Origin: Escherichia phage vB_EcoS_SCS31
Length of the DNA stretch: 46,054 nucleotides
Strand: one strand, 5' to 3'
Sequence record: ON081052
The position numbers and the translations under genes are program-made. Shown here piece after piece: positions 1,026 to 46,015 of this stretch; positions within the stretch are counted from its first letter, which is position 1, and every line of letters starts with the position of its first letter. The notes under the pieces were generated by a model, which was not told the origin of the DNA, did no database searches, and worked only from the letters and a program-made list of their open reading frames with translations.

Positions 1026-1309
1026 TGATCGACTTCAACTTTGAAGTAACAAAACTGAGCCACGAAGAGATTGCTGAAATCGCAGAGAAGAATGGCAAGC
1101 CAGTTGAGTTAATCGCCGCGAATTATAACGGAATGCGCTGGGCTTTTGAGAATGGATGCGATAAGGATAAGCTAGCTGAAATCGCCAAGGAAAATATTGC
1201 TAGCAAGAAGAAGATCAAGCCGTGGTACGAGAAGCACACTCGCACTGAATGGGAGGAAGCTATGGAGTTGTGGCAGTTAATGAAGAAGCTAAACAAATTG
1301 GTAAAATAG
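1025..1309 (+). CDS. hypothetical early protein (94 aa)
   Basis: ORF track; ATGA overlap with upstream ORF; stop TAG lies inside promoter motif copy at 1305. Confidence 0.45.
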   Translation: MIDFNFEVTKLSHEEIAEIAEKNGKPVELIAANYNGMRWAFENGCDKDKLAEIAKENIASKKKIKPWYEKHTRTEWEEAMELWQLMKKLNKLVK

Positions 1310-1350
1310 CACTTTTTGTTAAAACTCCATGGAGGGAGTTTGGCATAATA
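1305..1350 (+). promoter_or_regulatory. phage promoter, palindromic motif class (TTGTTAAAA subtype)
   Basis: AATAGCACTTTTTGTTAAAA, palindrome CTCCATGGAG, CATAAT. Confidence 0.45.
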
Positions 1351-1584
1351 GCTTCATTGAAATGAGAGAGGGATTCAAAATGTACTACGACGTTATCGCT
1401 GTTTGCCTGGTTGCCATTGTTGCTATTGTTGCAATTGTTAAGATTACGGAGAAGAAGTAATGCATACCATACAGATTAACGATTTAATTAGCGATGCCTT
1501 ACCATGGATAATCTGGTCCCTTGGATTTATGATTGTGTATATTATTGCATCCTTCGCGGATGATGCTAAAGAGGAAATTAAAGA

Positions 1585-1815
1585 ATGATTACTATCAACC
1601 TTTCAGATAAACAAGCTGCCGAGCTTAAAGAGGCGATGTCTATAAAGAAAATTCGATACGGCCAGTTTGAACGGGCAGGAGTTATGAGGGAAGTGATTAA
1701 ACAGATCAACAACCAGCAGTTCGACGTAAGTGACTTCGAGAGCTCTCGACAATACGAGGCGCTAAGCGTTAATGCTGCGTACCTGAATAGCTGGGATAAG
1801 GCGACTAAGAAATGA
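1585..1815 (+). CDS. hypothetical protein (76 aa)
   Basis: ORF track; RBS AAAGAGGAAA upstream of ATG. Confidence 0.4.
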   Translation: MITINLSDKQAAELKEAMSIKKIRYGQFERAGVMREVIKQINNQQFDVSDFESSRQYEALSVNAAYLNSWDKATKK

Positions 1816-2113
1816 ATCTTGACAAAGAGGTATTAAGAGATAATTTCATAGCTCACGGAATTGATGATGAAGATTTCCTAAATTGGTTCCTTGATAAAAA
1901 AGCCGATGAGCTTGGTTTGTACTGGTTCTCAACTGGTGCGACAATGTACGAGGCATGGGTGGCAGCAATGGAGACTAATAAATGATTTACATCCATACGT
2001 ACTATACAGGCAAGTTTAATAGCGTTAAGCATGTTCACGTGCACGATAGCTACGATAGCGCAAAGGCGCAATGGCTTGTTCTAGGTGGTGACATTAATTC
2101 ATATAGAATCGCT

Positions 2114-2160
2114 TAATAGCACGAATTGCTAAAACTGTATTGTGGTAATTTGATATAGTT
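2114..2160 (+). promoter_or_regulatory. phage promoter, palindromic motif class
   Basis: AATAGCACGAATTGCTAAAA ... TATAGTTACC. Confidence 0.5.
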
Positions 2161-2190
2161 ACCCTATCAACAACGAGATGGAGCATAGAG

Positions 2191-2400
2191 ATGAAAGTAA
2201 AAATTATTGATGATGATTGCACTGGATTACAGGAGTTAACGCTTACAGAATGCGGCTTTCAGATTGGTGACGTGGTAGAAGTTTACGGCAAGTACAAAGA
2301 CGGAGGCCTGTCAGTTAAGGTTATTCGTAATACTGAGTTTGTTTCAGTCGGAAATGAGATTAGCTTACAGGAAGGCGAATACGAGGTGATTGAAGAATGA
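2191..2400 (+). CDS. hypothetical protein (69 aa)
   Basis: ORF track; RBS GAGATGGAG upstream; follows promoter copy at 2114. Confidence 0.4.
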   Translation: MKVKIIDDDCTGLQELTLTECGFQIGDVVEVYGKYKDGGLSVKVIRNTEFVSVGNEISLQEGEYEVIEE

Positions 2401-2745
2401 AATTTCATCAGAGCAACCCAAAGCTACAGGCCAACCACCTCGACGGCTACGCAACTTTCATTATTGCTCAGGCTTGCGGAATGCGTGAAGACCCACAAGT
2501 TCACACCATCCACATGACTGAAGAGCAAGCTCGAGAATTGGCTTACGAAATTCTTGAGCAATTGAATCGAATTTAACGCGCATAGGACGCATTTTAACGG
2601 ACTATAATTTAAGGAATACGATTAGATGGACAACTACGAATTACCAAGCCAGTGGGCCAAAAGGATGATGTATGAAGCTAAGGACGGCAACGAGTCTATG
2701 GCATACTTTGAGCTTATGAACCTATGGAAAGAGCGAGAAGATAAA

Positions 2746-2790
2746 AATAGCACGAATAGCTAAACGCAGTCGCCACGGATGGCATATAAT
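2746..2790 (+). promoter_or_regulatory. phage promoter, palindromic motif class (variant)
   Basis: AATAGCACGAATAGCTAAA ... CATATAATTAC. Confidence 0.4.
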
Positions 2791-44173: not shown

Positions 44174-44244
44174 CTTAATGCTCCATCTCGTTAATGTGCG
44201 GGTATTATATAACACCCGCTCAGTATGTCTTTATCTTTTAGTGC

Positions 44245-44598
44245 TTATTTGTATTGCGCCTCGAATTTGTAAGTCTCGCAGAGCGTCTTGAAGCCAACTT
44301 CCTCATCTCGGTAAAGCTGCCAGGCATTGCCTTCTTTGTCATAGATGTAACCAGCATTTTGGCCCAGGCCAGCGTGCATGTTTACCTGATATCTCTTTCC
44401 TTCCGCGAACACTTTAGAGACGCCACTCTTATGGTTAACCTTTGTGCAATACAGAGTCTTGGTCTTGATGTATTTGCCGCGCTCTGTAAGGTTCTTCCAT
44501 TTTCCATTAACCTTGATTTGCTCTACACCATCTTTAACGCGAGCCTTGAACAAATCGTTATCGCTTGAAACCCAGTGTTTTGTAATCGTAGTAGTCAT
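44245..44598 (-). CDS. hypothetical protein
   Basis: ATG 44598 with RBS GAGAGGG. Confidence 0.3.
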   Translation of the reverse strand: MTTTITKHWVSSDNDLFKARVKDGVEQIKVNGKWKNLTERGKYIKTKTLYCTKVNHKSGVSKVFAEGKRYQVNMHAGLGQNAGYIYDKEGNAWQLYRDEEVGFKTLCETYKFEAQYK

Positions 44599-44777
44599 TT
44601 TAAGCCCTCTCTTTCGTTTTCCACATAAATTTGTTTGGTACTGATTTGCGAACGATTCGCACAACAATCTTATCTGTCTTTTGCACTAAGCCGTAAATCT
44701 TGCCGTCAAGTGATGAGCGGTATACTGCCTCTTCCATCTCGTCGTAAAAGTTGTCGAACATTTCTCATCTCCCGTCT

Positions 44778-44832
44778 CGATGGAAAGATAATGCCGTATC
44801 TCACATAAATGCTTTTAGCAATTCGTGCTATT
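44778..44832 (-). promoter_or_regulatory. phage promoter, palindromic motif class (minus strand)
   Basis: Reverse complement reads AATAGCACGAATTGCTAAAAG ... CATTATC ... ATCGAGACGGGAGATG. Confidence 0.45.
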
Positions 44833-44975
44833 GCGCGCCTTTTGTATCGCCTTAAGCATAATCTCATGACTCTCAAGCAAGTCCTCGCGGAACCAGTCGC
44901 CGCAAGGCCAGCCCTTTCCGCTGTATGCGCTGATGACCTCGAGATCGAAATAATTTATCTCAGATGGTAGTAGCA

Positions 44976-45218
44976 TCATTTCACCTCATCAAAAGTTGCA
45001 ATCCCAGGAATAAACATTCCAACCTTCCAGCCTGCAATGGCAATCCATCCAGAATCGTGCTTGTGCGGTCGATCAGCGCCTTTAATTAACCACTCGTTCG
45101 GGATTGTCTTGCCGTTAATGATTAGAGGCTCAGCGTCGTATACAGAGCCTTTTACGAATGGTGTTAAGGCTTTCTTGTCAGTGCTATTGATAACGTTAGT
45201 GCAGATTATTTTAGTCAT
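44976..45218 (-). CDS. hypothetical early protein (80 aa)
   Basis: ORF track. Confidence 0.3.
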   Translation of the reverse strand: MTKIICTNVINSTDKKALTPFVKGSVYDAEPLIINGKTIPNEWLIKGADRPHKHDSGWIAIAGWKVGMFIPGIATFDEVK

Positions 45219-45402
45219 TTACAACCTCGTACTCACCTTTATAAACAGCGACCTCTTCATTCACATTGTTGACAATCACTGCTAAACAAAGAGCACCCAA
45301 ATATTTTACCACTTCGTACTCGCAGCCAAGCGTCAGACCATAGTCCTCACATGAACGTCCACTGCAATCTAAATCTTCGAATTTAACTAACTTAATTTTC
45401 AT
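45211..45402 (-). CDS. hypothetical early protein (63 aa)
   Basis: ORF track. Confidence 0.3.
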   Translation of the reverse strand: MKIKLVKFEDLDCSGRSCEDYGLTLGCEYEVVKYLGALCLAVIVNNVNEEVAVYKGEYEVVND

Positions 45403-45959
45403 ATCTCAATCCTCAAATAAATGGCAAGCATTCGACGCAGCCAAGCCCATCACAGCACATGAATTCATCTTCTGACTGGAACTGCTTTGCTAAATCAATG
45501 TCTAGCCTTCCGCGCAACACAAGGTCGGTGTAATCTTCATTAAGCCCAATCAGTGCGCACTCGTTACGTAACTCATCTTTATTCTTTTTCATTTATCCTG
45601 GCCTTTTAAATTATGACGCTCTCTCAGAACTTCAACCCATTCTTGCGCGTCATTCTCTCTCATGAAGAAACTTAACTTTGGGTACTTGTGAAACCCTTTA
45701 AGTTCAACTATCCAATGGCCACCTTCGTAACTATAACTAACTTTCTTCTCTGTCATTTTGTTACCTTTTGAGTTTTTTTTGTTATCGACATCTCTTCAAC
45801 GTACTCGCTACAACTCGGGATTTTACTCCCGGCCCGGCATCCTAACAAAAGGACCCGCTCGGCGCTTTGGTGGGTGAGGTAACGCTTCCTCACATTGCGC
45901 GGTATCATTTACCCTTTTTAGTCCCTTTCGGGAGTGACTCAGAGTCTGCTACCGTGTCG

Positions 45960-46015
45960 ATGAAATGAAGTATACGCACATCGATTCAATATGTCTTTAG
46001 CAAAAAGTGCTATTT
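45960..46015 (-). promoter_or_regulatory. phage promoter, palindromic motif class (minus strand), heading a long leader
   Basis: Reverse complement reads AAATAGCACTTTTTGCTAAAG. Confidence 0.4.

Follow-up and report, generated by a model that had tools for sequence, protein, structure and literature searches.

A recurrent palindromic motif of T1-like phages: probable upstream element of a promoter and hairpin cassette that also occurs in T4-like phages

Escherichia phage vB_EcoS_SCS31 (record ON081052) carries between its genes near-identical copies of a short palindromic motif, ATAGCAC-N3-TTG(C/T)TAAA (ATAGCACNNNTTGNTAAA), which raises the question of what this motif does and what reads it. 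The window analyzed here is the whole 46,054-nt stretch of this record. In the first-pass annotation, the motif was taken for an operator that overlaps a -35 hexamer and binds a dimeric phage regulator. We favor a different reading, to which we assign a probability of roughly 55%: each copy would be the upstream element of a promoter and attenuator cassette of ~75 bp, a T1-type variant of the PeSL cassettes of T4-like phages, that is more likely read by the host.

The repeat itself is genuine. With up to two mismatches allowed, the pattern matches the window 20 times against 0.66 matches expected, and none of 100 shuffled versions of the window reached 20 matches; the inverted-repeat core that had been pointed out initially, TAGCA-N5-TGCTA, is found exactly 10 times, compared with 0.09 expected. 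Eighteen of the 20 matches are convincing; the one at 33157 (minus strand) is degenerate, and the one at 26154 (minus strand) probably arose by chance. The convincing copies start at positions 1306, 2116, 2747, 5966, 13125, 17152, 18846, 32098, 33663, 36163, 37204, 39122, 39691, and 40779 on the plus strand and at 25435, 25752, 44831, and 46013 on the minus strand. All 17 coordinates in the first-pass annotation are correct within 1 to 3 nt, but its list missed the copy at 33663 (the helicase promoter) and the degenerate one at 33157 (5' of the primase gene). The gap between the two halves of the motif is 3 nt and not a single N. The same pattern is found 23 times in T1, 20 times in Rtp, 15 times in Klebsiella phage Sushi, and 12 times in Cronobacter phage CS01, versus 2 matches in an outgroup phage. 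The motif is unchanged across these four phages, and thus across phages of three host genera (Escherichia, Klebsiella, and Cronobacter).

Seventeen of the 18 convincing copies are oriented toward the next gene, with 70 to 88 nt from the motif start to the ATG (105 nt for the copy at 46013). The half-sites of the palindrome are 10 bp apart. Two reading frames of the motif hold stop codons, and, as had been observed, it provides the stop codon of the upstream gene: either the TAG of ATAGCAC or the TAA of GCTAAA terminates the eight genes that end at 1309, 2763, 5969, 36166, 37207, 40795, 25419, and 44815, and at most sites this codon comes from the motif or from the bases just 5' of it.

To judge from its consensus, the motif is a repeat already described in T1-like phages. 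The analysis of phage TLS (Phage 2024, PMC11447400) reported a 21-nt direct repeat, aaATAGCACnnnTTGnTAAAA, at 21 locations, ~76 nt 5' of start codons and oriented along transcription, stated that similar repeats are present in T1, Rtp, and Rogue1, and left their function open among a stoperator, an enhancer site, and an UP element. The consensus in the window (~18 copies versus 21 in TLS) is identical, falls into the same subgroups by its central trinucleotide (GAA, TTT, or AAA), and is likewise intergenic, transcription oriented, and at a similar distance from the start codon. However, the TLS paper treated the repeat alone; it mentions neither a -10 at a fixed 22 bp nor the hairpin, the common leader, or any occurrence in T4-like phages.

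The sequence downstream of the motif was aligned for 90 motif copies from five genomes (the window, T1, Rtp, Sushi, and CS01). Eight copies have no nAnnnT hexamer. In 72 of the 82 hexamer-bearing modules, the hexamer lies exactly 22 nt after TTGnTA, and in the other 10 it lies at 21, 23, or 24 nt. The window follows the same rule, with the hexamer 22 nt after TTGCTA in 15 of 18 hexamer-bearing modules and at 21 or 23 nt in the other three, which corrects the earlier estimate of ~17 bp. This spacing is rigid even though the spacer sequences differ, and an ungapped alignment has everything from the motif through the start codon in register. Positions are numbered here from a predicted +1 placed 7 nt after the hexamer, from which the motif center near -42 is inferred. 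On this numbering, the motif spans about -51 to -32 and is centered at -41.5. G-47, C-46, A-45, and A-34 are invariant, and the two half-sites are conserved unequally (compare C-44 with T-40). Several positions outside the selection criteria are conserved as well (n = 72), namely, T-12 and T-10 (60/72 each), G-14 (57/72), and TGn (23/72), along with the predicted start bases C-1 (45/72) and A+1 (62/72). The -10 is a hexamer of the sigma-70 type, TAnnnT with G-14. It is followed by a leader (ATCGAAACGA; AUCGAAACGA), whose bases, aligned by position, have the consensus A+1 T C G A A A C G A, and then by the Shine-Dalgarno sequence and the ATG. The conserved leader reported in the first pass stands as such a positional consensus; as a free-standing 11-mer, it is weakly enriched (21 matches versus 12 expected). 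The predicted 5' untranslated regions (UTRs) are 19 to 39 nt long, with one of 54 nt. Throughout the cassette, conservation is position specific and not uniform.

It is the -35 assignment that does not hold. The -10 lies 22 bp after TTGCTA, and TTGCTA is therefore not a -35; nor is there a -10-like hexamer 17 bp downstream of it. No -35 is found 16 to 18 bp from the -10, the hexamer at 17 bp being AAAGAC or AAAACn, and canonical -35/-10 pairs in the window are no more frequent than in shuffled sequence (39 versus 35, 31 versus 41, and 11 versus 13). With their conserved -10 and leader, the modules are very probably promoters, and their predicted targets are those named initially: early genes, morons, HNH genes, and DNA metabolism genes.

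Complete modules of the T1 type are also present in T4-like myoviruses with genomes of ~175 kb, where they were found by a scan of viral contigs followed by BLAST searches. They occur in Pseudotevenvirus (Lw1, RB16, RB43, SemperBestia, and PF-CE2) and Slopekvirus (KP15 and Miro), and in four T4-like phages the motif is identical while its flanks differ. The whole genome of Lw1 contains five full modules with spacings of 22, 23, 32, 33, and 33 bp, of which the 32- to 33-bp ones amount to one additional helical turn, as well as three more modules with the same -10 and leader that lack ATAGCAC. A gene with a T1-type motif in Lw1 has orthologs in RB43, SemperBestia, and PF-CE2 that stand under TTGACC-17-TATATT with an identical leader, and orthologous positions of T4-like phages hold now a T1-type, now a canonical PeSL promoter, with the common leader ACACACATCGAAACGAAAC. 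These orthologous promoters show the hexamer to be a true sigma-70 -10, with the motif standing in for the -35 region, and the distribution of the modules points to promoter cassettes common to a siphovirus and a myovirus family.

In RB49, ~19 PeSLs are found in 50 kb, with the structure TAAAAAGTTG-TTGACA-N17 (including a GGGG..CCCC stem)-TATAAT-ACACCCATCGAAACGA-GGAG..ATG. PeSLs of RB49 and phi1 had promoter and terminator activity in uninfected E. coli, as measured with lacZ fusions (Arbiol et al. 2010, PMC2839356), and they have been proposed to act as recombination substrates in modular shuffling (PMC2839356; Comeau et al. 2014, PMC4122927). By their -10, leader, and hairpin, the modules studied here match these promoter/terminator cassettes. 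Like PeSLs, they combine a promoter with a stem-loop in the interval from a stop codon to the following Shine-Dalgarno sequence and ATG, have a poly-G/poly-C stem that overlaps the -10 or lies between it and the upstream element, share a near-identical -10/discriminator/leader (TATAAT-ACACCCATCGAAACGA in RB49, TATAGT-TACCCCATCGAAACGA here), and are located at junctions of swapped orphan-gene cassettes (here at one locus, 18846). RB49 PeSLs contain an A-tract and, at 17 bp, a consensus TTGACA; modules of the T1 type lack a -35 and have ATAGCAC-N3-TTGCTAAA 22 bp from the -10. Because the consensus -35 at 17 bp is missing, we place the element in the PeSL family as a variant and not as a standard member; the promoter and terminator activities reported are those of the RB49/phi1 type. 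The record of KP15 (NC_014036) lists features labeled "putative middle promoter; discovered using MEME" that overlap predicted terminators and cover TTGTTAAA..N22-23..TATAGT of the same modules. The word "middle" in this label is annotation only, and the element is not a MotA box in register or in position (near -38 versus near -30).

T1-type modules also turn up in sequence records with other labels. A 46,669-bp contig of the Nitratidesulfovibrio liaohensis assembly (NZ_VSMK01000220.1) contains four of them, matches a Drexlerviridae genome in size, and is probably phage contamination. Two "Campylobacter phage" records (MG065665 and MG065688; phages A131 and A110b; 44 to 47 kb) contain such modules together with a homolog of gp49, the product of a gene discussed below; these phages look like Drexlerviridae, and their host attribution is doubtful.

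The 22-bp spacer usually holds a hairpin of variable sequence. When the segment from -33 to +3 was folded and compared with shuffled versions, the mean z score was -2.4, as opposed to -0.13 for random windows of the same genomes (Mann-Whitney p = 1e-17), and 55% of the modules had z below -2. In the first pass, this hairpin had been only glimpsed, as a small one between -35 and -10 in some copies. Folding favors the sense strand over the antisense strand by 1.3 kcal/mol (p = 3e-4). Two classes can be distinguished: in one, the arms bracket the -10, e.g., GGGGTAA-N10-TTACCCC; in the other, the hairpin is GC rich with a frequent GAAA loop, and it stops within the first bases of the -10, ahead of a T-rich tract. 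In orthologous promoters, the stem sequences are wholly different, and one stem shows a compensatory series across three phages, GGGGTA/TACCCC, GGGGTA/TATCCC (with a G-T intermediate), and GGGATA/TATCCC. The hairpin is under selection, and its fold scores, strand bias, compensatory stem, and differing stem sequences favor an RNA structure over a DNA cruciform.

The predicted modules of the window, together with an orphan motif and a degenerate module, are as follows.

1306..1379, plus strand: module of gp3; motif 1306-1323, -10 CATAAT 1344-1349, predicted +1 1356
2116..2190, plus strand: module of gp8; motif 2116-2133, extended -10 (TGA-TATAGT) 2154-2159, predicted +1 2166; hairpin arms GGTAA/TTACC on both sides of the -10
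2747..2823, plus strand: module of gp11; motif 2747-2764 gives the TAA stop of gp10, -10 TATAAT 2785-2790, predicted +1 2797
5966..6038, plus strand: module predicted to drive the moron gp16, with the terminase and portal genes on either side of this gene; motif 5966-5983 (the TAG in it terminates the large terminase gene), -10 TATAGT 6004-6009, predicted +1 6016
13125..13200, plus strand: module of the moron gp27, directly 3' of a terminator at 13097-13116; motif 13125-13142, -10 TATAGT 13163-13168, predicted +1 13175, leader CATCGAAACGA
17152..17223, plus strand: module of the HNH gene gp31; motif 17152-17169, TGC-TATAAT 17190-17195, predicted +1 17202; spacer hairpin GCCAAA/TTTGGC
18846..18920, plus strand: module of gp34; motif 18846-18863, -10 TATAGT 18884-18889, predicted +1 18896; hairpin GGGTA/TACCC around the -10
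25351..25435, minus strand: module of the lipoprotein gene gp39; motif 25435-25418 gives the stop of gp40, -10 TATGAT 25397-25392, predicted +1 25385
25680..25752, minus strand: module of gp40; motif 25752-25735, weak -10 TACCAT 25714-25709
32098..32115, plus strand: orphan motif with neither -10 nor leader; antisense, flanked by the primase terminator and the start of the tail fiber gene
33089..33157, minus strand: degenerate module (AAAGCACGATTTGATAAA) with hairpin GGCAC..GTGCC, between gp49 and the primase gene
33663..33750, plus strand: module of the helicase gene gp50; motif 33663-33680 (ATAGCAT variant), -10 TAGTAT 33700-33705
36163..36242, plus strand: module of gp52; motif 36163-36180, -10 TATAGT 36201-36206, predicted +1 36213, leader CATCGAAACGA; 8-bp hairpin ATGGGGTA/TACTCCAT around the -10
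37204..37277, plus strand: module of gp57; motif 37204-37221 (ATAGCAT..TTGTTAAA), -10 TATATT 37242-37247; spacer hairpin AATCCA/TGGATT
39122..39193, plus strand: module of the HNH gene gp61; motif 39122-39139, -10 TATTAT 39160-39165; terminator-like hairpin TAGCCGC-GAAA-GCGGCTA running into the -10 and a T-rich tract
39691..39764, plus strand: module of the polynucleotide kinase gene; motif 39691-39708 with a 1-nt insertion (TTGCCTAA), -10 CATAAT 39729-39734, leader CATCGAAACGA; hairpin ATGCCG/CGGCAT overlapping the -10
40779..40863, plus strand: module of gp64; motif 40779-40796 gives the stop of gp63, -10 TATCAT 40817-40822, leader CATCGAAACGA
44762..44831, minus strand: module of gp71; motif 44831-44814 gives the stop of gp72, -10 CATTAT 44793-44788, predicted +1 44781
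45909..46013, minus strand: module of gp77, the first one in the minus-strand gene block at the right end; motif 46013-45996, 23-bp spacer, -10 TATACT 45974-45969, 5' UTR of ~54 nt

Two gene starts in GenBank lie inside promoter spacers, upstream of the predicted +1. For gp3 (1329-1460), annotated from 1329, the true start is likely the in-frame ATG at 1380, after GAGAGAGGG; for gp40 (25419-25724, minus strand), annotated from 25724, it is likely the in-frame ATG at 25679, after AAGGAG. A further correction to the first pass concerns 32098, where the motif has neither a -10 nor a leader and is antisense to its neighbors; this orphan copy is conserved in Rtp (33762) and T1 (34902). Further antisense copies are seen in the structural region of T1 (15086 and 18850) and CS01 (13241). 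At the position equivalent to the degenerate module, Rtp, T1, Sushi, and CS01 have the motif followed by a terminator hairpin. The window also encodes a tRNA-Arg (anticodon TCT; 3487-3561), with the early genes on one side and the small terminase gene on the other.

The length and gene coordinates of the window are those of Escherichia phage vB_EcoS_ACG-M12 (JN986845; Drexlerviridae, Braunvirinae, Guelphvirus), a relative of Rtp and T1. Between the two sequences there are 3,058 mismatches and not a single indel. The mismatches, between 3544 and 39649, form a mosaic of identical and 10 to 20% divergent blocks with a bias to third codon positions, and within the modules they fall in the spacers, mostly sparing the conserved elements. 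Several of the divergent promoter spacers of the window look Rtp-like. The ACG-M12 genome paper does not mention promoters and reports the phage as non-temperate; the 21-nt repeat had not been reported for ACG-M12. The homology between the window and Rtp at 18846, the one locus compared, covers the upstream gene and the motif and ends right after TTGCTAA; what follows is gp34 in the window and the HNH gene rtp40 in Rtp, and T1 has no insert. By this comparison, 18846 is a cassette junction.

If the modules are promoters, what reads the motif? The first-pass annotation named two helix-turn-helix (HTH) candidates. The product of 37986-39122, gp60, belongs to a DNA repair exonuclease family (phrog_704, E = 1.7e-152), has no Pfam HTH match, and was rejected as a regulator. 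Its homolog in Klebsiella phage Sushi is annotated as a sigma-70 region 4-like HTH fused to a metallophosphatase. The other candidate, gp49 (33144-33650), is indeed an HTH protein, a homolog of Rtp52 and of T1 gp23 with weak Pfam matches to the YdaS, P22 Cro, and CI HTH families. Its confident AlphaFold model (predicted local distance difference test score [pLDDT], 88) has a basic arm, predicted to be disordered, at the N terminus and an all-alpha HTH domain of the Cro-like kind, with the Cro proteins of Xfaso-1, N15, and P22 as the best structural matches.

In the strongest of the alternatives, which is that of the first-pass annotation, a gp49 dimer would bind TAGCA-N5-TGCTA and control a phage regulon, as a class II activator from about -42 and as a repressor where the site lies downstream of the start. 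A model of this kind is reportedly that of the 2006 Rtp genome paper, where Rtp52 is said to have been proposed to bind ten conserved inverted repeats. Several points are in its favor. The gene for gp49 is a core gene of the Drexlerviridae (828 phage records), GenBank lists its homolog Rtp52 as a putative regulator of transcription, the Cro proteins that its predicted fold resembles bind their operators as dimers, and half-sites 10 bp apart near -42 are where lambda cI sits at PRM. In addition, each of the five genomes has one motif copy directly next to the gp49 Shine-Dalgarno sequence, on the opposite strand. In the window this is the copy at 33663, within the gp49 5' UTR, and a candidate minus-strand gp49 promoter (TTGTCT-17-TACAAT, -10 at 33709-33704) overlaps the helicase -10; the layout resembles an autoregulatory switch but may simply be the helicase promoter. 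No second, lineage-specific gp49 operator is evident by eye in the gp49-helicase intergenic region.

However, identical conserved modules are present in T4-like phages, and Lw1, the one of them whose whole genome was searched, has no gp49 homolog (best tblastn E = 0.17, compared with 1e-43 for T1 as a control); the window phage and Lw1 have no protein in common except for a weak polynucleotide kinase match. Moreover, the arm, DKRTxNGNNGTxRGxDKKxRKRPxGYYVL, is the most conserved part of gp49, and HTH helices 2 and 3 are its most variable part (top-residue frequency of 0.49 to 0.55 in the HTH helices versus 0.84 in the N-terminal arm and 0.79 in the C-terminal domain), while the motif stays constant. 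The half-sites are, furthermore, unequally conserved. Because Lw1 has the modules without gp49 and a variable HTH faces an invariant motif, a gp49 regulon seems unlikely, and the proposal of a phage-specific regulon under an HTH protein is weakened accordingly. The presumably earliest genes, at both genome ends, use the same motif and architecture, so that the motif should work before any phage protein exists and any activator would have to pre-exist infection.

A reader supplied by the host, either RNA polymerase or a factor such as Lrp, thus appears more likely than gp49. Lrp is the best sequence match among host factors and is offered as a lead. The E. coli Lrp consensus is yAGhAwATTwTdCTr (PMC5554404); the flanks TAGCA and TGCTA of the motif always match it, and positions 8 and 9 match in about half of the copies.

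The motif was also compared with known classes of promoters and regulatory sites. UP elements have the consensus AAAWWTWTTTTnnnAAA with an A/T tract at about -59 to -38, whereas the motif has conserved G-47, C-46, A-45, C-44, and G-38 and is A/T rich only in its central 3 to 5 bp. Sigma-54 promoters are TGGCAC-N5-TTGC with invariant GG and GC and a start 12 nt downstream; the motif is TAGCAC-N3-TTGC with a sigma-70 -10 22 bp downstream. The T4 MotA box, wwwTGCTTyA, is centered at -30, 11 to 13 bp from the -10, and depends on phage-encoded MotA and AsiA, whereas TGCTAAA ends ~20 bp from the -10 here, and MotA and AsiA are not annotated in the window. Finally, the L5-type stoperators of mycobacteriophages are asymmetric repressor sites in the transcription units of temperate phages, uncoupled from promoters, whereas each site here comes with a -10 at the fixed distance of 22 bp, and ACG-M12 is reported as non-temperate. 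The first three classes were rejected on spacing, sequence, or position, and the motif does not fit the fourth. A further likeness is to promoters with class II activators, such as galP1 with CRP at -41.5 and lambda PRM with cI at -42. Similar features are a palindrome with half-sites 10 bp apart centered at about -41.5 to -42 (relative to the predicted +1), the lack of a usable -35, a good and often extended -10, and strict spacing. The differences are that the half-sites are unequally conserved here, the start is inferred, and the activator is only a candidate.

The favored mechanism, in which each copy is part of a PeSL-like promoter and attenuator cassette, would then work as follows. Host sigma-70 RNA polymerase would start ~7 nt after the -10, and the motif would replace the missing -35, acting from one fixed helix face. 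By analogy with the stem-loops of RB49 PeSLs, the hairpin would act in read-through RNA from upstream, as an attenuator or as a stabilizer of 3' ends, and the conserved motif would double as a homology patch for gene cassette swaps between phages. The least certain step is the reader, which would be the alpha or sigma subunit of RNA polymerase, or a conserved enterobacterial factor, rather than gp49. As to the motif itself, ATAGCAC-N3-TTGCTAAA may be an uncharacterized upstream element that replaces the -35 on enterobacterial sigma-70 polymerase and would be read at about -42 by a host factor or by a non-canonical polymerase contact. This more specific proposal is clearly less probable than the cassette as such.

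Several observations weigh against this interpretation. Transcription start, RNA-seq, or binding data for any Drexlerviridae phage were not found in the searchable literature. The motif is not an A/T-tract UP element, and the half-site asymmetry (C-44 versus T-40) is not explained by a plain homodimer or by RNA polymerase alone. The motif agrees with the Lrp consensus at 11 to 13 of its 15 positions, and positions 6 and 7 are mismatched in every copy. No enterobacterial chromosome in a set of 100,044 species genomes contains the motif with a correctly spaced -10, and a host factor would therefore have no identical natural site. As for the hairpin, stems with arms that bracket the -10 (class A) are not followed by a U-tract, and the idea of one terminator per module, with a spacer hairpin only where an upstream terminator is lacking, found no support (p = 0.73). 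The modules of T4-like phages could also be inert passengers, although their conservation and stem covariation argue otherwise.

A second alternative, improbable in our view, is that the motif has no part in initiation, being a recombination homology patch, an orientation-dependent roadblock ("stoperator"), or a stop codon module, with the promoter formed by the extended -10 and leader. At the swapped cassette, the window and Rtp cease to be homologous exactly where the motif ends, which would fit this view, as would the role of PeSLs proposed for recombination (PMC2839356, PMC4122927), the stop codons in two frames, the conserved orphan copies that have no -10, and the three Lw1 modules that keep the -10 and leader without ATAGCAC; a stoperator is also among the options in the TLS paper (PMC11447400). 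However, neither a patch nor a stop module needs the fixed 22 bp to the -10 across unrelated spacers, and the 32- to 33-bp spacings in Lw1 keep the same helix face (in three cases only, which are possibly interrelated). Conservation is position specific and not uniform across the cassette, and these are virulent phages with no known L5-type repressor.

Least probable of all is that the cassette acts as RNA, with the palindrome and hairpin folding in polycistronic transcripts for processing, stabilization, or antitermination and with TAnnnT incidental: sense-strand bias, a G-U intermediate, GNRA loops, a palindrome able to form a 5-bp stem, and the conserved disordered Arg/Lys-rich arm of gp49 are in its favor, but the palindrome never covaries, its invariance suggesting sequence-specific reading, the hexamer keeps its sigma-70 signature and pairs with a canonical -35 in orthologous T4-like promoters, RB49 PeSLs have been shown to be promoters (PMC2839356), and an Rfam search of the window finds only tRNA.

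T1-like phages often contaminate fermentations and are candidate agents of phage therapy, and their transcription program is essentially unmapped. Canonical promoters have repeatedly been too few in annotations of these phages, with three in TLS and 5 to 10 in the AHP24 group. The modules described here, whose reading as promoters is well supported by sequence logic, are probably the missing T1-like promoters: ~18 of them cover most non-structural transcription units of the window, and recognizing them corrects gene starts such as those of gp3 and gp40. With a host-supplied reader, the cassette would be portable, which would explain its presence in two unrelated families of virulent phages, Drexlerviridae and T4-like Straboviridae, presumably by transfer between them. 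Such a portable cassette, found also in T4-like myoviruses, would link the two phage families by a shared regulatory module.

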